Shown: one piece after another, positions 15,261 to 58,084 of the stretch
How positions within the stretch are numbered: position 1 is the stretch's first letter
Layout: each line of letters starts with the position of its first letter
Origin: a phage
Assembly: GCA_018015315.1 (NCBI GenBank)
Contig: GCA_018015315.1_3629.1
Strand: one strand, 5' to 3'
Length of the DNA: 64,000 bases
Notes under the pieces: generated by a model
What the model was told of the DNA's origin: nothing
The model's input: only the letters and a program-made list of their open reading frames with translations
Databases searched by the model: none
Position numbers and translations under genes: made by a program

Positions 15261-15527
15261 TTAAGCTTTTTGCTCTTCGTTTTTAACGTGGTCAGGGTGC
15301 TGGCAACCCCACCGGAGCGAGATGAATTTGCTAATAAGCTGGGGGCAGGCTACTGAAGGTGCATATATCCACGCATACCATTCAGGAAGCGTATCATTAT
15401 ACCCCATATGAATAAACACCCCAGTCATCACCGCCATGCCTATGTTCGACCATAGCTTAGATTGGGATACTTTCGTAGGGTCATCAGATGCCGCAACCAG
15501 TCCCCATAAAAACTGAGTTAGTTTCAT
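15261..15527 (-). CDS. small membrane protein (candidate holin-like or fiber-associated)
   Basis: 88 aa; hydrophobic segments (LWSNIGMAVMTGVFIHMGY, WYAWIYAPSVA) and charged C-terminal tail (HVKNEEQKA). Confidence 0.4.
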   Translation of the reverse strand: MKLTQFLWGLVAASDDPTKVSQSKLWSNIGMAVMTGVFIHMGYNDTLPEWYAWIYAPSVACPQLISKFISLRWGCQHPDHVKNEEQKA

Positions 15528-16671: not shown

Positions 16672-16986
16672 TTACCTTTTACTATGCTCTACAAGCATGT
16701 GCAAAATCTTTTGTACATCAGCTCTGATGCCGGAGACATCTGTCCTAACATCCTGCTTAAGGTCGTTAATATCGGCCTCTAGCTTGCTTAACCGAGTCTC
16801 GATAATAGAATCAAGTTTATCTTTTGTAACCATACTGTTTTTCACTAAGATGAGGTCTTTCTCCAGTTCATCCAACCTCTTGGAAATGCCTTTCCATTTG
16901 GTGTGCCACTGGTTGAAAGCCCATACACAGATCGGGACAACGGTACCCATGCAGATACCGTACAATGCCGCCAAATCCAACTCCAC
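16672..16986 (-). CDS. membrane-anchored coiled-coil protein
   Basis: 104 aa; one N-terminal hydrophobic helix (LAALYGICMGTVVPICVWAF) followed by heptad-like charged sequence. Confidence 0.4.
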   Translation of the reverse strand: MELDLAALYGICMGTVVPICVWAFNQWHTKWKGISKRLDELEKDLILVKNSMVTKDKLDSIIETRLSKLEADINDLKQDVRTDVSGIRADVQKILHMLVEHSKR

Positions 16987-50183: not shown

Positions 50184-51164
50184 TTATTTATTAGATTCTT
50201 TACGTGCACGAGCCAGAGCTTTAGCGACGTTTTCAGCAATAATATCTTCAGCAGATTTAGCAATGTCATCTACTACGACATCACCATCTTTGCCTTGCTC
50301 GGTGGTTGCGAACTCTTCTTTAGCTTTTTCAACTTTAGCTTCCAGTTCAGCAATACGAGCTTGAGCTTTTTCCAGCAATTCAACAACAGGAGCGTTAGCT
50401 TTATCCAGCATGAATTCGACCAGAGATGCGTGGTCTTCTTCAGTGGTGAAGCTTAACGCCTGAGCTTTTTCCAGCATTTTAGCTTTTTCAACTTCTACCT
50501 GAGCCTTGATGATTTCTTCAGCTTTTTCATTGGTAGCTTTCAGTTCTTCGAACTGTTTCAGCAGGTCCAGGTACTCTTGAGACTTGGTTACGTCTTCCAC
50601 CGGATTCTCCTCGGTATTTGCGGATTTATCAACATTGTCCACAGCGTCTGTAACAACTTCTTCTGTGGTTTCCTGCGCCGCTTTAATAAGTTTCCCTTCT
50701 TCATCGAAGAGATCAGCGGTCATCTGCTCAAAAACTTGTTGGGTTTTCAACAGAGTGTATTGGTCAACAATACTTAAATCTTTACCTTCTTTAGCAGCTT
50801 TGTGAATGGTTACGTTATCACAACGTTCTTCTAACCACTGCACACAAGCCTCTGCATCAGCCTGTGCCCACTCCCAATCTGGGTGTTCTTTTGCCCAAGC
50901 TTCTTCCTCAATCTCGAACCCAAGCAGGTGAGCCAGTGCCTTAGCATCGTCATACCACATATCGAAAAAACGACGCAGGTATTCTTCAAAACTGAGCTCC
51001 ACAGTAACTTGGCGAAGTGCCTTAACAATATCGTCTGTTAACTGCTCAGGCTTAAGATCGCTCTTCATTAAAAGAGATACAGGCCGATTGTTAGCGCTAT
51101 AGCCTTGCGCCTTATGGCACAGGGCAATACCCTTCTCTTTAATAGTGATTGTTTTTTCAGACAT
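50184..51164 (-). CDS. scaffolding protein
   Basis: 326 aa, highly acidic and Ala/Glu/Lys-rich; located between the protease-position gene and the capsid gene. Confidence 0.6.
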   Translation of the reverse strand: MSEKTITIKEKGIALCHKAQGYSANNRPVSLLMKSDLKPEQLTDDIVKALRQVTVELSFEEYLRRFFDMWYDDAKALAHLLGFEIEEEAWAKEHPDWEWAQADAEACVQWLEERCDNVTIHKAAKEGKDLSIVDQYTLLKTQQVFEQMTADLFDEEGKLIKAAQETTEEVVTDAVDNVDKSANTEENPVEDVTKSQEYLDLLKQFEELKATNEKAEEIIKAQVEVEKAKMLEKAQALSFTTEEDHASLVEFMLDKANAPVVELLEKAQARIAELEAKVEKAKEEFATTEQGKDGDVVVDDIAKSAEDIIAENVAKALARARKESNK

Positions 51165-51595
51165 TATTCATTGCCCTCTTCTACAACACTGATCCCGAAA
51201 TTTACATTGGTAATTTCGCCCGTCTCTTCATCAACATTACCTGTTGCCTGAATGCTTAGGCCACCAACAATGCCAGCCTTCTTAGCTTCCCATAATTCAG
51301 GATTATTGTATTTAACTTTAGCAACCCAAGAGCCAGCCTTGATGACCTGCTCAGTACCAATTACTACAACATCAAACTCTTCTTGAATCCACGTCTTTTC
51401 AATAGTGAAAGCATCTGTAGAGGTCAAGTGGAAAAGGTTTTCAGAAACTAGGCCTGCGGCGTATGCTGCGTCCCAATTATCTTTAGCCTTTTTGATGGTG
51501 TCTTTACTCATCCACTCACCGTGAGCGTCTTTAGTGTCCGGTTCGTAGATGATTTCGTAGGAAATCATTTCTTCCTGTGGCATCTTATTCCCCAT
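51164..51595 (-). CDS. putative prohead protease / head morphogenesis protein
   Basis: Sits in the portal-protease-scaffold position; the track ORF (start 51736) overlaps the portal gene by 85 nt, so an internal ATG start is assumed. No catalytic motif identified. Confidence 0.35.
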   Translation of the reverse strand: MGNKMPQEEMISYEIIYEPDTKDAHGEWMSKDTIKKAKDNWDAAYAAGLVSENLFHLTSTDAFTIEKTWIQEEFDVVVIGTEQVIKAGSWVAKVKYNNPELWEAKKAGIVGGLSIQATGNVDEETGEITNVNFGISVVEEGNE

Positions 51596-51650
51596 GTGGA
51601 TTATTTTATCACGCCAAAGGAGGTTTTGCAACCCCCTGTGTTGATAATTT

Positions 51651-53207
51651 TTAATTTTCCATGTTGGATATGGAATTATCTCTGGTTGATGACATCTTAG
51701 AAGTGCCGTTGCCAGCGGATCCTGCAGCCATTCCATCGCCAGCCCTACTGATGTCCTGGCCCAAGAGCTTCATTAGCTCTTCCTGATCCATGTCCTCGTC
51801 AAATCTTTCATCAAACCCACCTACTTCAAGAATCTTATTAATTACTGCAGGAGTTTTTGGCAAGTAACCTACAGCACCGATCCTCTGGACAAACTTGGAG
51901 AAGCTCTCCATGTCCACCTCTTCAATCAGGCCAGGTTTCAGTTTAGGCATATCATCATCTTCAAGGATGATACCATTCAATGCCAGAAGCTGTGGAATAA
52001 GATCTTTATTGAAGGCCTCAGTGATAATATCTATATCACGCTGAACAAAATGACCATGGATAGACTGTTTTGACTCAGACAGAGAGAAGGATCCGACGTT
52101 ATCGTTACCGAGGTTAATAAAGCCAGCACCGAAACGGTCAAGAATCGCCTTCTTACGGGCATCAATCAAATCTTTAGTTGAATACTGCTTGCCCATACCG
52201 TCAACCCCCTTCAGGGTCATGGAGTAAAGCTCTTTACCAGACTTATCTCTATCAGACGGAAGTATAAAGAAACTTTGCTCCCCACTATGGGCGTTTGCTG
52301 CGTCAAGCATAAGATCTGCAACCATTCTCCCTTCCATTGAATTCGGGTCAATACTGGCCTTGTTCAAAATATTGGAAGGAATTTTCAGCTCAAGCACACC
52401 ACCAAGGTCTTTGGAACAGCCAACAACCTCAAGGTTTTCAATCAAAACTTTCTCACGGAAAGATCTGTAGCAACCTATCATCGGTGACACACCTGCAGGG
52501 TTAGATTCTGTTCCTGACAGAGTCATGAGCATAAGCTTTTTAGCAGGGATGAAAATTTCAGGCTCATTAAAGCCTTTTGAAGGCATTGCAGCGAGAGGAC
52601 CAGCCCAGCGTGCATTCTGCGTGTTTAGAAATGCATTAGGTGATTGATAAATACCTGTCAGTGTTCTACTATTCTTGTCAAAGACAAACGGCTCTGATCT
52701 GGACAAACTGGCCTGTGGTCGGAACGCAATCTTATCAATAAGAAGCATCCCGGCGTATTTACCTTCTTTCTCTCTGCGGTATACTTTCTCAAACAGTGAA
52801 AAACCATACTCGTTAAAGGTAGCTGCGCTTCTTGCAATATCTCGAAGAGTTTGTTGGTTTGCCAAATTACGCAAAGAATACTCTATAAGCTCGGCAGCTT
52901 TCTTAGAGTCTTCACTTTTAACATTATAAAGGATCTTAAAATCATTAAATGCTTTCGTGATGAAAACATATTTTGTATCTAAGGCAGTAGCAACTGTGGA
53001 ATCACATTTCATAGTCTCCACTGTGGCAATCAGTTGAGGCCAACGCAATTCCTCAACCATCATAGATTGTGATTCTGCCATAATTTGGGAAAGTGCGCCA
53101 GAACCGATCTCACTCATACGAACATTATGAGTTGGTGCGCCTGCGTTCCCAGATTTATTCACAGTTTTGGCTGTGGCGTTGTGTTTCCTGCGGTTCTTTT
53201 TGGACAC
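51651..53207 (-). CDS. portal protein
   Basis: 518 aa, immediately downstream of the terminase large subunit gene; basic N-terminus and acidic C-terminus. Confidence 0.65.
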   Translation of the reverse strand: MSKKNRRKHNATAKTVNKSGNAGAPTHNVRMSEIGSGALSQIMAESQSMMVEELRWPQLIATVETMKCDSTVATALDTKYVFITKAFNDFKILYNVKSEDSKKAAELIEYSLRNLANQQTLRDIARSAATFNEYGFSLFEKVYRREKEGKYAGMLLIDKIAFRPQASLSRSEPFVFDKNSRTLTGIYQSPNAFLNTQNARWAGPLAAMPSKGFNEPEIFIPAKKLMLMTLSGTESNPAGVSPMIGCYRSFREKVLIENLEVVGCSKDLGGVLELKIPSNILNKASIDPNSMEGRMVADLMLDAANAHSGEQSFFILPSDRDKSGKELYSMTLKGVDGMGKQYSTKDLIDARKKAILDRFGAGFINLGNDNVGSFSLSESKQSIHGHFVQRDIDIITEAFNKDLIPQLLALNGIILEDDDMPKLKPGLIEEVDMESFSKFVQRIGAVGYLPKTPAVINKILEVGGFDERFDEDMDQEELMKLLGQDISRAGDGMAAGSAGNGTSKMSSTRDNSISNMEN

Positions 53208-53309
53208 AAGCTTTACCCCTCAAAACAGTATAACAAAATAGCCCTCGTGTTAGAGGGCTAGTATCTCCGATTAATCTATTCTACCACATCTAATTAAGAT
53301 TGGCAACAC

Positions 53310-54857
53310 TTAGATAAAACGCTTGAACATAGAAGGTGATGAGATTGATGGAATCACACAAGGAAGTGCTACCTCCTCTTTCTCCAGGAAATTAATTGCA
53401 GAAGCTACACAGTCAGCCCAGTCGTCTTTTCTGTTAAATGTTGATCTTTCCCCGTTGAATTTTTCAAGTTCGGTCAGAAATGCTTCCAGAGTATCAGGAT
53501 GGAAACTGGATTTTACAATCCTCACCATCCCTTGTTGGGCAAGATTGGCAAAAGGTGAGAACCTTGTCAGTTTAGACTTGTTGGAAGGCATTGGGTCTTC
53601 TTCAACCCTGAACCCTTCTGCGAGCAAGGATCTGGATGAGGTTAAGAACTCACTCTTACCTGCCTGACCAGGGTCCACAGAGAATACGATTATACAATCA
53701 TCACCATCAAACTGCGCCTGTTTCCTGATGATCACATCTCGTTCACCAGCCTTTTTACAGAACTTGCCTTCCAGACCTGTGGAATACCTCCCGTCATCCA
53801 CGTTTTCAGGACAATAATCCCCTGACAGGTAATAAAATCCGTCGCTATCTTTACTTACCTTAACACTGGCGGTAAAGTCAGGAAATTTATTACCGGAAGT
53901 TCTCTCGGTTCCTGCCTTATCCCATGCCCTGCAAGATACTGATCCAAGGGGTACTCTATCGGCATCACGAAGGAAAGATCTTTGAAAATAGTTTGCACCC
54001 TCAGGCTTTGCAAACCAGTTACCATGGAGAAGCTGAGCTTTTTCCAGCTCTGGTAGACCTTCGAGGAAAGCAAGGTATTCTGGGTTGTCTCTCAAACAGA
54101 CAGGATTATCGAATATTGTTGCGCCTATGAACGAGAATGACAACGGTCTTGGCTTGATCTCCACACCCAGTCCGTTAACCGTGGTGTATTTCTCTATCAA
54201 CTCTTCCTTAGAGTCTCCCCAAATAAATTCACCGTCGCGTCGGATAAAATATCTTTTCTTACCACATTTCTCCGGATCTGGATACCCTTCATCGTCCAAC
54301 CACCATCTAACCAGTTTGGCAAGCATGTGTTCTGAATCAGGGTTACAGCTGATAACCATCCTTGATGGATACTTTGACTGAGATCGCAGACGAGACATCA
54401 GGTAGTCTATCTGCTCCCATTCGAACTGCGTGCCCTCATCGAAGCAAACCATGGTGTACTCAAGCCCCTGATGGTTAAGCTTATCTTGTACATACTCCAT
54501 GTGGCAGTATTTTACAACAGCTCCCTTTTTGCTTCTATCCCACTTGCCAGTGCTCGGATCAAACCGTGGAAAAATGAACTTATGATCCTTCTCTCTAAAC
54601 TTTGGCTTAATGTTTTCAGGCAGATCACTATAAATAGCTACTGCTTTAGGCCATAGTCCACCCTCACCTTCCAACTGCGGGGTTGTTCTTCGGAACATAA
54701 CCACAGAGCTGTGGGGGTCATCAATAATTTTAAGCGGCATCAACTGCAAGAGGAACGACTTGCCAGACCCTGCGGCACCGCCGATTACCAAAATATCTGC
54801 ATCGTTTTCGAGGATCATCTTCTGCTTTTCAGAACACGGTCCGTAAATCTTAGACAT
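53310..54857 (-). CDS. terL: terminase large subunit
   Basis: Walker A (VIGGAAGSGKS) near the N-terminus, Walker B-like hhhhDE (MVCFDEG), acidic C-terminal nuclease-like domain; 515 aa. Confidence 0.85.
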   Translation of the reverse strand: MSKIYGPCSEKQKMILENDADILVIGGAAGSGKSFLLQLMPLKIIDDPHSSVVMFRRTTPQLEGEGGLWPKAVAIYSDLPENIKPKFREKDHKFIFPRFDPSTGKWDRSKKGAVVKYCHMEYVQDKLNHQGLEYTMVCFDEGTQFEWEQIDYLMSRLRSQSKYPSRMVISCNPDSEHMLAKLVRWWLDDEGYPDPEKCGKKRYFIRRDGEFIWGDSKEELIEKYTTVNGLGVEIKPRPLSFSFIGATIFDNPVCLRDNPEYLAFLEGLPELEKAQLLHGNWFAKPEGANYFQRSFLRDADRVPLGSVSCRAWDKAGTERTSGNKFPDFTASVKVSKDSDGFYYLSGDYCPENVDDGRYSTGLEGKFCKKAGERDVIIRKQAQFDGDDCIIVFSVDPGQAGKSEFLTSSRSLLAEGFRVEEDPMPSNKSKLTRFSPFANLAQQGMVRIVKSSFHPDTLEAFLTELEKFNGERSTFNRKDDWADCVASAINFLEKEEVALPCVIPSISSPSMFKRFI

Positions 54858-55144
54858 TAACCTCTCTCCTTTGGAAACAGTGTTCTAATATAGTCTTGCA
54901 AAATGATCAATTTAGCTCTATCATTGCTACAAGACAAATTATTATCCCTCATAATGCCAGAATTTACTGCATCTGGAGCACCTTTCTTCAAAGGCATAGC
55001 TTTAGCAGGTGGTTTCATGGCACCTTCCGGGGGTTTAACAATCAACCTTCCTACATCTGGAGGGTCAATCTTGTATTCTCTCTCAACGCTGGTTGCACAC
55101 CCACATAATAACAAGCACACAATAAACAGTGTAGCAACTCTCAT
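54857..55144 (-). CDS. o-spanin (Rz1-like outer-membrane lipoprotein)
   Basis: 95 aa; signal peptide with lipobox LLLCGC; Pro-rich mature part; overlaps the i-spanin stop by 4 nt. Confidence 0.6.
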   Translation of the reverse strand: MRVATLFIVCLLLCGCATSVEREYKIDPPDVGRLIVKPPEGAMKPPAKAMPLKKGAPDAVNSGIMRDNNLSCSNDRAKLIILQDYIRTLFPKERG

Positions 55145-55539
55145 CTACCCTCCTGATTAATACTCTCATTATAAATATCTATAAGCTGATCAGGGAGTGT
55201 TGACTTCTTACCCTCAGGTGACTGGAGGTAAATAATCTGCTTTTCTTTACCTGCCTTCTCAGCCATATTTAATTTATCCTGTAGATCAGAAAGGGATTTT
55301 TCAAGGTTTTTAACCTCCTCTGCGTGGCCCATTTTAATTTTGTCGGCCTGCTTTTGTTGCTGATCAAGGATCCGTTCCCACTTTAACTCTGTTGCTGACA
55401 CACCTTCTTGGTAGGCATCATTAAGCTTAGAGTTAAACCAATACACGGCCCCAAGATAAGCTGTACCTATCGCAGCTGCAAAAACTAAACCTTTTATGAT
55501 CCCTCTATACCTGCTCAGCCATGTTAAAACTGAAATCAT
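55141..55539 (-). CDS. i-spanin (Rz-like)
   Basis: 132 aa; N-terminal TM helix (GLVFAAAIGTAYLGAVYWF) followed by coiled-coil-like charged sequence. Confidence 0.6.
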   Translation of the reverse strand: MISVLTWLSRYRGIIKGLVFAAAIGTAYLGAVYWFNSKLNDAYQEGVSATELKWERILDQQQKQADKIKMGHAEEVKNLEKSLSDLQDKLNMAEKAGKEKQIIYLQSPEGKKSTLPDQLIDIYNESINQEGR

Positions 55540-55554
55540 TTTAAGGCTCCAGAA

Positions 55555-55590
55555 ACGAAAAAACCCCGCAGCTATACAGCTAACGGGGCG
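55555..55590 (-). terminator. rho-independent terminator
   Basis: CCCCG...CGGGG stem with structured loop, followed by UUUUUU. Confidence 0.5.
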
Positions 55591-55644
55591 GGTTAAAATT
55601 GAGTAACCTAAATAGATCGAAACTAACTAAAAGGAGACTAATAC

Positions 55645-55914
55645 TTATCGAGGCACTCGGTGGATGATTCTAACAGTAACTGCATTTTCATTCATCAAGT
55701 ATGCATCTACATCTCTGTAAATATAAAACTTCTGCTCACTATCAACAACACAAGCTACCGCCCCTTCAGAGTTGTCTTCAAAAAAGACCACCACTGCATC
55801 GCAGCTGAGTTCATGATATGACTCTCGAAGATTTACAGCCAGAGGATTGAAATCGTCACGAAAATCTACGGTATGGGTTGGATTTACACGCTCTACAATT
55901 TTAAGTGTATACAT
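55645..55914 (-). CDS. hypothetical protein
   Basis: Start set at the internal ATG (MYTLKIVERV); the longer track ORF would overlap tRNA-Pro. Confidence 0.45.
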   Translation of the reverse strand: MYTLKIVERVNPTHTVDFRDDFNPLAVNLRESYHELSCDAVVVFFEDNSEGAVACVVDSEQKFYIYRDVDAYLMNENAVTVRIIHRVPR

Positions 55915-55960
55915 TTTAAAGGTTCCTTTTGTTTGTATATGTTTAAAGTATAACTGAAAG

Positions 55961-56037
55961 TGGTCTCCACGGAGTGATTCGAACACTCGACCTCCTGATC
56001 CCAAATCAGGCGCTCTACCAAGCTGAGCTACGCGGAG
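55961..56037 (-). tRNA. tRNA-Pro (anticodon UGG)
   Basis: Hand-folded cloverleaf: acceptor CTCCGCG/CGTGGAG, D-stem GCTC/GAGC, anticodon stem CCTGA/TCAGG, loop TTTGGGA, T-arm GAGTG-TTCGAAT-CACTC, CCA encoded. Confidence 0.75.
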
Positions 56038-56048
56038 TATTTACTATT

Positions 56049-56123
56049 TGGTGGCCCTGGGTGGAATTGAACCACCGTCTGGCGATTATGAGTCGCTTGC
56101 TTGAACCTTCCAGCTACAGGGCC
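56049..56123 (-). tRNA. tRNA-Met (anticodon CAU; could be Ile-lysidine type)
   Basis: Acceptor GGCCCTG/CAGGGCC, anticodon loop CTCATAA, T-arm GGTGG-TTCAATT-CCACC, CCA encoded; D-stem only 3 bp. Confidence 0.65.
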
Positions 56124-56124
56124 T

Positions 56125-56200
56125 TGGTGCTGATGGCAGGACTTGAACCTGCAACATATTGATTACAAATCAATTGCACTACCAATTGTGCTACATCAGC
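56125..56200 (-). tRNA. tRNA-Thr (anticodon UGU)
   Basis: Perfect cloverleaf: acceptor GCTGATG/CATCAGC, D-stem GCAC/GTGC, anticodon stem ATTGA/TCAAT, loop TTTGTAA, T-arm GCAGG-TTCAAGT-CCTGC, CCA. Confidence 0.8.
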
Positions 56201-56205
56201 AAAAA

Positions 56206-56304
56206 GGTGCTAGGTGATGGAATCGAACCATCTATGTATTCAACGACTACCTCGTCTATTTTCAGGATTAAAAATCCTCGCCCTTGCCAAAGGGCTTACC
56301 TAGC
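56206..56304 (-). tRNA. atypical tRNA-like gene (possible anticodon UUU, ~30-nt extra region)
   Basis: Perfect acceptor (GCTAGGT/ACCTAGC), D-arm (GCCC-TTTGGCAA-GGGC) and T-arm (GATGG-TTCGATT-CCATC), but 4-bp anticodon stem and an unusually long region before the T-arm. Confidence 0.4.
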
Positions 56305-56402
56305 TCAGTATGTTGACCATGTTGCTAGTCGGCGATGACGACTGTAACATTTGATAATCCGGTTCTGCTTCCGGCTTTCGCTTAATTACAAGGTCAACAA
56401 TG

Positions 56403-56493
56403 TGGCAGAGGATAATGGAATCGAACCATCATCGAGTCATCCTCAACGGGACGGTTTTCAAGACCGCTTGAGCACCATTGCTCCCTACCCTCT
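56403..56493 (-). tRNA. tRNA-Ser (anticodon UGA), long variable arm
   Basis: Anticodon arm GCGGT-CTTGAAA-ACCGT, variable-arm hairpin, T-arm GATGG-TTCGATT-CCATT, acceptor AGAGGGT/ATCCTCT with one G-U pair, CCA encoded; D-arm spacing unusual. Confidence 0.6.
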
Positions 56494-56610
56494 TTTATTA
56501 TAAACAATACTGATAATGACACTGATTTTCGAGCAGTTAGTGACTAGTATAAACGACGATAAATACCAATGCCATTATCTGTATGATTTATGCATCTAAA
56601 AATATAAATT

Positions 56611-56697
56611 TGGTGGGGAGTGGTGGAGTCGAACCACCCGAGTCGCAATGACAATAGATTTACAGTCTACACCGCTACCTCTACGGGATAACTCCCC
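56611..56697 (-). tRNA. tRNA-Tyr (anticodon GUA), long variable arm
   Basis: Acceptor GGGGAGT/ACTCCCC, anticodon arm GTAGA-CTGTAAA-TCTAT, T-arm GGTGG-TTCGACT-CCACC, CCA encoded. Confidence 0.7.
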
Positions 56698-56701
56698 AAT
56701 T

Positions 56702-56776
56702 TGGCACCCCGTACTGGACTCGAACCAGTGTCAACGGCTTAGAAGGCCGCTGCTTTATCCACTAAGCTAACAGGGC
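56702..56776 (-). tRNA. tRNA-Arg (anticodon UCU)
   Basis: D-stem GCTT/AAGC, anticodon arm GCGGC-CTTCTAA-GCCGT, T-arm ACTGG-TTCGAGT-CCAGT, CCA encoded. Confidence 0.75.
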
Positions 56777-56872
56777 ACTGGGTGGCTTTCTTTTACACCT
56801 TAGCCGCCAGAAAAGGTGGGAGACCATGTTTACAATATTACACTGTTAAGCAAAGTTTGTCAAGAAAATATT

Positions 56873-57211
56873 TTAGCTATTGCTAACAGGCTGTATTTCT
56901 GTGGTGAATGGCATAAAAGGTGCTGGTTTTTCAGCCTCTTCTACTACCACCTCTTCCTCTTCACCAAACATCTCATCATATTCTTCCTGCATTCGGTCTG
57001 CCTTATCAAGAACATACTCTGCAATGCTTTGACGAATATTTTGTTTGGTTTTCGGGTCCAACATCAGCTCTCTTAGAACTTTGTGAGCTTCTGGAACCAT
57101 CGCTATAAAAGATTCCTTCATATCAAGGATGTTCTTCTCTAGCTGAATGGCGTTGGACTCCTCTTTCAGAGGTCTGCCTCTACGGCGACGCTTTTTAGTT
57201 GTATCCGCCAT
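56873..57211 (-). CDS. small protein with basic N-terminus and acidic C-terminus
   Basis: Start at the internal ATG (MADTTKKRRRRGRP) with GGAGG RBS, 25 bp downstream of a consensus promoter. Confidence 0.55.
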   Translation of the reverse strand: MADTTKKRRRRGRPLKEESNAIQLEKNILDMKESFIAMVPEAHKVLRELMLDPKTKQNIRQSIAEYVLDKADRMQEEYDEMFGEEEEVVVEEAEKPAPFMPFTTEIQPVSNS

Positions 57212-57239
57212 GTTTCCTCCATTATCACGTGATAGGTGG

Positions 57240-57268
57240 ATTTTATCATAGCAAATACTGATTGTCAA
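57240..57268 (-). promoter_or_regulatory. near-consensus sigma70 promoter
   Basis: Minus strand: TTGACA (57263-57268), 17-bp spacer, TAAAAT (57240-57245). Confidence 0.6.
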
Positions 57269-57555
57269 GTTCGCCGCAGGGTGGTATTCCCTGCGACTTG
57301 TCCAGCGTCCTGGACCAGCAAGACCCAACAAGTGGGTTACCAGAGCCCATTACCGCGCTTTGGCTAGACCTTATTACAGGTTGGCTGGGGTCACATCGTC
57401 ATGTGCTGGCTGCCCCTACCATTTTAAGTGTGGTGCACTATCAAGCTCTCTAAGGGGAACTCAGCCTTCTCCGAACCCTGTTTCAAAGCATCCGGAGATA
57501 AAGCCATCAAATTCATCTTTAAATTGGATATTCATCATGATACACGAAAACAACC

Positions 57556-57798
57556 TCATTGTAAAGCACAAATAAATAAAACATACTTAATTTGTTTGTT
57601 ATCAGGCTCAGGGTAGAAGTAGAAGATCTTGCTATCACCGATCTGAACACCACCATCCCAACAGCATAGCCCATAACCCGTATTCATACAAGCTAAGTCG
57701 TTGGCAAAATCTATTGCATCATCCAGTGCACGAAATTCACCTTCATCTTCTAAATAATCCTCATTCATGGAACGAAAAACGAGCTTAACCTTAAACAT
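57556..57798 (-). CDS. hypothetical protein
   Basis: 80-aa ORF. Confidence 0.45.
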   Translation of the reverse strand: MFKVKLVFRSMNEDYLEDEGEFRALDDAIDFANDLACMNTGYGLCCWDGGVQIGDSKIFYFYPEPDNKQIKYVLFICALQ

Positions 57799-57874
57799 AG
57801 CATTACCTGTAGACCTCGTAAGTTAAAATTGTATCACATCATATTGCAGATCTTATCAGGTAACATTATTTTTG

Positions 57875-58084
57875 TCAACAGATTCCGGCCTTATCTCGCC
57901 TGTCTGTGTATTCTTTAATCGCAACCTCATCTGCATTAGTGACCAGGTCTTCAAAGTAACTCTCAAGCTCCTCGTCAATGTCAGGAGACCAGCCCTTTTT
58001 CCTGTCAGTGTGAATCGCAGACTTGTTAAACTTAGTACAGTTCTTTGCTACCGGATTGTTCATTAAGCACCCCTCAGCGTTCAT
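57875..58084 (-). CDS. hypothetical protein
   Basis: 69-aa ORF overlapping the upstream gene end by 11 nt. Confidence 0.4.
   Translation of the reverse strand: MNAEGCLMNNPVAKNCTKFNKSAIHTDRKKGWSPDIDEELESYFEDLVTNADEVAIKEYTDRRDKAGIC

Follow-up and report, generated by a model that had tools for sequence, protein, structure and literature searches.

The stretch of phage DNA analysed in this study, in the following called the window, comprises 64,000 nucleotides (nt) and belongs to contig GCA_018015315.1_3629.1 of the NCBI GenBank assembly GCA_018015315.1. Directly upstream of the gene for the large terminase subunit (TerL) it contains two small overlapping genes, for which an initial annotation had proposed a pair of spanins, namely an Rz-like spanin of the inner membrane (i-spanin) and a lipobox-bearing spanin of the outer membrane (o-spanin). 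Both open reading frames (ORFs) exist with exactly the boundaries proposed and are located on the minus strand. The genes and junctions of the locus are as follows:

55141-55539, minus strand: i-spanin gene, an ORF of 132 amino acids (aa)
54857-55144, minus strand: o-spanin gene, an ORF of 95 aa, encoding a prolipoprotein as judged by rule
55141-55144, minus strand: ATGA overlap of i-spanin stop and o-spanin start, 4 nt, read from the sequence
54855-54859, minus strand: TAATG junction of o-spanin stop and TerL start, an overlap of 1 nt, read from the sequence
53310-54857, minus strand: TerL gene, 515 aa, intact

The i-spanin gene starts with ATG and is preceded by a GGAG motif 7 nt upstream. 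An AGGAGG motif is located at about 55149-55154, within the 3' end of the i-spanin gene, and the ribosome binding site of TerL (AGGAG) is encoded in the final codons of o-spanin. The order of the pair, adjacent genes with the i-spanin first, is the one known for spanins, whose genes may be embedded, overlapped or separated, and is realised here by the ATGA overlap. The identity of the downstream gene is clear from its family matches (phrog_979 with an E-value of 1.7e-208, Pfam Terminase_6N with 4.6e-20 and Terminase_6C with 2.7e-06), and the portal gene (phrog_113) comes next after it. The overlap of 4 nt and the place directly upstream of TerL, as described in the initial annotation, are thus confirmed by the sequence and by these matches.

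The two proteins and their families

A single hydrophobic segment (about residues 14-35), positively flanked on its N-terminal side (R10, R12 and K16), is present in the product of the first gene, and the best window of 19 residues on the Kyte-Doolittle scale reaches a value of 1.8 (residues 14-32). The sequence past this segment is charged and heptad-like, and cysteine is absent from the whole protein. An AlphaFold2 (AF2) model, which was built from the single sequence, has a mean pLDDT of 72 and consists of a continuous helix (residues 12-99) which a disordered linker connects to a short helix at the C-terminus (residues 115-129); the modelled shape is the one expected for an i-spanin. Rule-based hydropathy and the AF2 model together reveal the single N-terminal transmembrane domain (TMD; N-in, C-out) and the largely helical periplasmic domain of a spanin, and we regard the 132-aa product, as predicted from its sequence, as a protein that passes the inner membrane once in this orientation and is helical in its periplasmic domain. 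Its match to the PHROG family phrog_4297 ('Rz-like spanin') extends over the full length with an E-value of 1.5e-49, and two more spanin families of this database are matched more weakly.

The N-terminus of the second product, MRVATLFIVCLLLCGC, contains the lipobox L13-C14-G15-C16, and the residue at position +2 is alanine. By the PROSITE lipoprotein rule PS51257, a signal is recognised with core residues 6-16, Cys16, an uncharged h-region and an arginine within the first seven residues, and the spanin lipobox pattern [ILMFTV][^REKD][GAS]C is present as LCGC. Cys16 is the predicted lipidation site and, since residue +2 is alanine, the protein has no Lol-avoidance signal. A signal peptidase II signal, a lipobox cysteine and the lack of an aspartate at +2, which together mark an o-spanin, are all found by these rules. 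The mature protein of 80 aa has a proline content of 11% and one further cysteine (C72), and the best-matching PHROG family is again one of 'Rz-like spanin' (phrog_1267, E-value 1.3e-22). The identification as spanins is thus supported by the PHROG families, the TMD and the lipobox alike, and the lipoprotein signal, for which the initial annotation had referred to formal prediction, is present by both the PS51257 rule and the spanin lipobox rule.

Two small genes in front of TerL also call to mind the small terminase subunit (TerS). The slot immediately upstream of TerL, translationally coupled to it, is the canonical one for TerS, no TerS is annotated around this locus in the related phages Murica, MiataMamis and rV5, and the 132-aa coiled-coil protein, alone or together with the 95-aa protein, would fit the missing TerS by its small size and the long helix of the AF2 model. 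However, an N-terminal TMD with a positive flank cannot be reconciled with a soluble DNA-binding TerS, and neither can a partner whose lipobox is invariant. Spanin families of PHROG are matched while terminase families are not, neither in PHROG nor in Pfam, and a sequence search of the PDB returned no TerS. On these grounds the identity of the pair as TerS was rejected, and we consider it extremely unlikely; T7 shows, moreover, that genes located between TerS and TerL can encode spanins and no terminase subunit. We therefore continue to treat the two genes as a spanin pair.

Conservation and interpretation of the gene pair

The 5-kb region around the pair (window 53000-58000) shares 99.1% identity with Escherichia phage MiataMamis; for the remaining nineteen records listed, including FFH2 and Murica, the identity amounts to 98.1-98.7%. 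Those of the listed records that are identifiable all belong to Vequintavirus (rV5 group). The region also matches eighteen GenBank records of a 'Campylobacter phage'. For the ones listed, namely C2, C12, C14, A116 and others with Campylobacter jejuni as host, the identity is 98-99%, which suggests that they are mislabelled or contaminating coliphage genomes.

The two genes are annotated as 'i-spanin' and 'o-spanin' in Murica (gp65/gp64; Center for Phage Technology) and twice as 'Rz-like spanin' in MiataMamis and in the RefSeq record of rV5. The pairs rV5 gp068/gp067 (ORF 67/66), Murica gp65/64, LL12 gp66/65 and the orthologues in MiataMamis are the same genes, with the same lengths, ATGA overlap and position upstream of TerL as found here. 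Among the Vequintavirus relatives compared, the amino acid identity of the i-spanin ranges from 94.7 to 100%, rV5 being at the lower end with 94.7%, and in SYGMH1 it is 91.7%. The pairs do not differ in substance. The neighbouring TerL gene is intact in the window, whereas that of rV5 is assembled from three pieces and contains a gene for an HNH endonuclease (PMC4591320). In the survey of Kongari et al. (2018; PMC6139136), rv5 forms an i-spanin group together with 2_JES-2013 and FV3, and an o-spanin family 'rv5 (7)' includes PVP-SE1, 4MG, Av-05 and GAP31; both are assigned to the 'separated' architecture. The pair therefore belongs to recognised spanin families by phrog_4297, phrog_1267 and the rV5 i-spanin family of that survey. 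GenBank records and the literature on rV5-like phages already contain the two genes, the family to which they belong and their place next to the large terminase gene, and the significance of our results lies mainly in correct annotation.

Comparison with rV5 and SYGMH1 gave dN/dS values of 0.09-0.17 for the i-spanin and of 0.04 for the o-spanin gene, at a dS of up to 0.5-1.1; both genes are under purifying selection. By tblastn, homologues of the i-spanin were detected in 197 phage records, some of them with an identity of just 24-33% in phages of Salmonella, Klebsiella, Cronobacter and Erwinia. The local gene order (tRNA array, i-spanin, o-spanin, TerL, portal) is kept in the Seunavirus phages PVP-SE1 and KE23 and in the Henunavirus phage pEp_SNUABM_01, the tRNA array being annotated in two of these three records. 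Across the three genera of the Vequintavirinae the pair has similar lengths at an amino acid identity of 21-39%, and the overlap of 4 nt is present in PVP-SE1, pEp_SNUABM_01 and KE23 as well. In Seunavirus and Henunavirus, a gap of about 100-140 nt is located between o-spanin and TerL instead of the TAATG junction.

The o-spanin homologues of these three phages match phrog_1267, too. In the four genomes from three genera, the lipobox residues L13, G15 and C16 are invariant, while position +2 is occupied by A, Q, A or S. Further residues conserved across the genera are the C-terminal motif NNL..DR..L..LQ.Y.R..F of the o-spanin and the motifs GV..T..KW and, at the C-terminus, DIYN.S of the i-spanin. 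That the two ORFs are chance or mis-called genes is practically out of the question: such a reading could appeal to their small size only, and it is contradicted by dN/dS values of 0.04-0.17, by full-length matches to PHROG families and by conservation between genera at 21-39% identity with the same lengths and overlap.

On the basis of gene structure, rule-based membrane and lipoprotein signals, family membership, purifying selection, conserved synteny and an endolysin gene encoded elsewhere in the genomes of the near-identical phages, we are highly confident that the pair represents the two-component spanin of an rV5-like (Vequintavirus) coliphage. For lipidation, complex formation, membrane fusion and timing we draw on lambda Rz/Rz1 and T4 PseT.3/PseT.2. 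By analogy with these systems, the 132-aa product would be inserted in the inner membrane by its N-terminal helix, and a helical domain, probably a coiled coil, would reach into the periplasm. Its 95-aa partner would be exported, lipidated on Cys16 and cleaved by signal peptidase II; the Lol pathway would then sort it to the inner leaflet of the outer membrane, retention in the inner membrane not being expected because of the alanine at +2. Binding of the C-terminal regions of both proteins to each other may result in a complex which spans the periplasm through the peptidoglycan mesh. After holin triggering and the removal of peptidoglycan by the separately encoded endolysin, spanin complexes would be free to collapse, and this collapse would fuse inner and outer membranes and complete lysis. 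The spanins are presumably linked in translation to each other by the ATGA overlap and to TerL by the TAATG junction, and would for this reason be made along with the packaging enzyme late in infection.

A different view would be that the two genes encode envelope proteins with another role, such as superinfection exclusion or a lipoprotein moron, and that the outer membrane is disrupted in another way, e.g. by a disruptin-type peptide. Several points count against our interpretation and partly lend themselves to this view. The function of the pair in this family is assigned from sequence: we found no experiments on spanins of the rV5 family, every label traces to bioinformatic identification, and the lipoprotein signal was assessed here by sequence rules. 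Neither protein had a match in a Pfam search, the sequence search of the PDB yielded no relative of the i-spanin, and its model had no match in BFVD at an E-value <1 by Foldseek, which is explained by the model being one long helix and too simple for fold searches. Furthermore, the i-spanin is free of cysteine, and the sole periplasmic cysteine of the o-spanin, C72, is conserved in Vequintavirus and replaced by alanine in the Seunavirus and Henunavirus homologues, which are thus without periplasmic cysteines; the genes are also far from the other lysis genes. On the other hand, a gene for a type II membrane protein overlapping with a following gene for an outer-membrane lipoprotein is the defining signature of a two-component spanin. 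Only four ORFs with a hydrophobic segment were detected in a scan of the window, two of them being the pair itself, and no other spanin candidate was seen among them. The conservation beside TerL across the subfamily is that of core genes and not moron-like. As to the cysteines, 72 of the 526 spanin systems surveyed contain one periplasmic cysteine and 21 contain none (Kongari 2018, PMC6139136). We therefore judge another envelope role to be very unlikely and retain the two-component spanin. For this pair, a homotypic disulfide, which has been described as general for spanins, appears doubtful from the distribution of cysteines.

Transcription signals and neighbouring genes

Two terminator-like elements flank the spanin genes and TerL:

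55556-55588, minus strand: strong intrinsic-terminator-like hairpin, CCCCGTTAGCTGTATAGCTGCGGGG followed by TTTTTT, present in the minimum free energy and centroid folds and annotated as a terminator in Murica
53239-53260, minus strand: terminator-like hairpin downstream of TerL, found in a terminator scan and annotated as a terminator in Murica

The T-tract of the upstream hairpin, which is absent from the list of the simple terminator scan, ends 7 nt before the GGAG motif of the i-spanin gene. Between this terminator and the i-spanin ATG, neither a sigma-70-like site nor the late motif of rV5, TGGTAAAATA, was found. With a terminator in front of the ribosome binding site of the pair and no recognisable promoter after it, a place at the head of the late structural operon, as assumed in the initial annotation, is not supported. 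In the whole window the late motif has 19 matches, compared to 5.3 expected, and these are mostly located upstream of structural genes; the nearest downstream copy is TGGTAGAATA at 53277-53286, a late-motif-like or extended -10 site upstream of the portal gene. The nearest promoter-like sites on the upstream side are a tRNA promoter at about 56835-56863 and a site at 57240-57268, both of which match promoters annotated in rV5. The spanin-TerL block is a small unit bounded by two terminators, and we therefore infer that its expression probably depends on read-through, for example from the tRNA promoter, or on an unrecognised late promoter.

Four phages have the same sequence (100% identity) in the region upstream of the i-spanin gene; one of them is SYGMH1, the spanin genes of which diverge at a dS of 0.5-1.1. 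A regulatory element in this intergenic region was considered and rejected, as the identity extends over about 1.9 kb. Over this length SYGMH1 and the window are about 99% identical, apart from one insertion of about 127 nt, and the divergence sets in abruptly at the start codon of the i-spanin (55539). Since the entire upstream stretch of about 1.9 kb is this similar, the pattern reflects a mosaic boundary at the i-spanin start and not a local constraint.

The genes upstream of the pair are one for an 89-aa protein and the tRNA array. Seven tRNA-like genes were detected at 55961-56776 on the minus strand (Pro, Met, Thr, an odd call of 99 nt with an anticodon of four bases, Ser, Tyr and Arg). 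The 99-nt element (56206-56304), which Murica lists as 'tRNA-OTHER' and which is missing from the annotation of MiataMamis, may be a pseudo-tRNA or contain an intron. In Seunavirus and Henunavirus, the place of the 89-aa gene and terminator of Vequintavirus is taken by a gene for a protein of 475-485 aa (phrog_16176, with a weakly nucleotidyltransferase-like N-terminus), which overlaps the i-spanin gene by 4 nt and is split into two ORFs in PVP-SE1. It was rejected as a further lysis gene, since the protein is neither a holin nor an endolysin.

Further upstream, a 112-aa protein (56873-57211, minus strand; phrog_3330) combines a very basic N-terminus (KKRRRRGRP) with an acidic tail, and a three-helix core is confidently modelled by AF2. 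Its gene has a strong sigma-70-like promoter of its own with an extended -10 region (57240-57268). A phmmer search gave a weak match to the small terminase 7joq of the PDB (E-value 0.061), and no match was found by Foldseek against the PDB. The protein is a possible candidate for TerS, in which case the layout, with tRNAs, the 89-aa gene and the spanins placed before TerL, would resemble that of T7. One could go further and regard the position of the pair as functional and not as a historical accident, given its lock to TerL by TAATG, the terminator upstream with no recognisable promoter and the possible placement between an unrecognised TerS (the 112-aa protein) and TerL. We consider this improbable; if true, it would point to an ancient expression unit of packaging and spanin genes, by which the dosage of spanins is coupled to the synthesis of terminase in virulent phages that are unrelated to each other.

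On the other side of TerL, an ORF of 190 aa (51164-51736, minus strand) overlaps the end of the portal gene. Its labels disagree: it is called 'DNA methyltransferase' in MiataMamis and 'hypothetical protein' in Murica, there with the note 'contains PBSX protein domain, possible portal', and it also matches head-maturation-protease families of PHROG (phrog_3017 with an E-value of 1.2e-13 and phrog_15223, 'protease'). Because of its location between the portal and head genes, a prohead protease is the more likely product.

Arrangement of the lysis genes in comparison with T7, T4 and lambda

By tblastn, no homologue of the Murica endolysin was found in the 64-kb window. The Murica gene for this endolysin of the GH24 family (70326-70796(+)) is part of a cluster for DNA metabolism; a distance of about 10 kb separates it from the spanins, which are encoded on the other strand. 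The endolysin gene of MiataMamis (135072-135542(+); phrog_90) corresponds to a position of about 65.6 kb in window coordinates. By this correspondence the gene lies about 1.6 kb past the right edge of the window. The separation from holin and endolysin is thus explained in part by the boundary of the window and in part by the dispersed layout which is normal for this group of phages. The gene for a second cell-wall hydrolase (PF07486, SleB-like) adjoins rIIA and is located outside the window, about 3.5 kb from its left edge. Directly downstream of the endolysin gene, and therefore outside the window, a gene of 68 aa is present (MiataMamis 135606-135812 (+), Murica gp82; phrog_4641), the product of which has a hydrophobic start with cysteines in lipobox-like contexts (FMAAC, CLAC). 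From its sequence it could be a small secreted protein or lipoprotein, or else a membrane protein with a link to the endolysin.

In the announcement of phage LL12, the endolysin (gp90), i-spanin (gp66), o-spanin (gp65) and TerL (gp64) are assigned, and its authors were unable to identify a holin (PMC6658697). Two genes in the tail-fibre cluster on the minus strand, 15261-15527 and 16672-16986, are candidates for the holin of rV5-like phages. The former encodes a membrane protein of 88 aa with a charged C-terminus (phrog_1322, 'membrane protein'), and the second small membrane protein of this cluster (104 aa; phrog_5345) has an N-terminal TMD followed by a coiled-coil-like region.

In the initial annotation, the distance of the spanin genes from holin and endolysin was called an unusual arrangement. 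This did not hold, as the same placement is present in Murica, rV5, MiataMamis and T7 and is described in PMC7344957, the genes are catalogued by Kongari et al. (2018), and the lysis genes of T4 are scattered. According to Buttimer (2020; PMC7344957), the spanin genes of rV5, PVP-SE1 and CB7 adjoin the large terminase gene outside a lysis cassette, and a similar arrangement exists in podoviruses such as VP4 and SP6.

With T7, the locus shares the position of the spanin pair upstream of the large terminase gene and away from the endolysin gene. The order in the T7 reference record is holin (17.5), TerS (18), spanins (18.5/18.7) and TerL (19). In T7, however, the o-spanin gene is embedded in the i-spanin gene in another frame, whereas the genes here overlap by 4 nt only, and TerS and holin are identified just upstream, where the window contains the 89-aa gene and the tRNA array. 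The 89-aa protein has the same length as gp18 of T7 and no similarity to it. Homology to the T7 proteins at the same position was rejected: the i-spanins align with an E-value of 0.12, and the alignment of the o-spanins covers the signal and lipobox only (E-value 0.008 in a single pairwise comparison).

The topology and mechanism inferred for the pair are those of lambda Rz/Rz1, a type II inner-membrane protein together with an outer-membrane lipoprotein, and in both cases the mature o-spanin is rich in proline. In lambda, in contrast, the o-spanin gene is embedded, the pair ends a contiguous S-R-Rz/Rz1 cassette and both proteins contain periplasmic cysteines; a contiguous cassette of holin, endolysin and spanin genes of this type is not formed by the pair described here. 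The lambda and rv5 spanin families are listed separately in the tables of Kongari 2018 (PMC6139136).

The pair PseT.3/PseT.2 of T4 resembles the one in the window in several respects. T4 is a large virulent myovirus as well, its i-spanin gene is followed by an o-spanin gene which is not embedded, its i-spanin is free of cysteine and the periplasmic segments are helical. Differences concern the sequence families, which are separate from rv5 in the tables of Kongari 2018 (PMC6139136), the cysteines, as PseT.2 has two essential periplasmic ones and the o-spanin described here has one, and the location, as the T4 pair is not placed beside the terminase genes. Nor are the T4 spanin genes near the holin gene t and the endolysin gene e (Kongari 2018, PMC6139136), and in large virulent phages, of which T4 is an example, lysis genes are normally dispersed over the genome.

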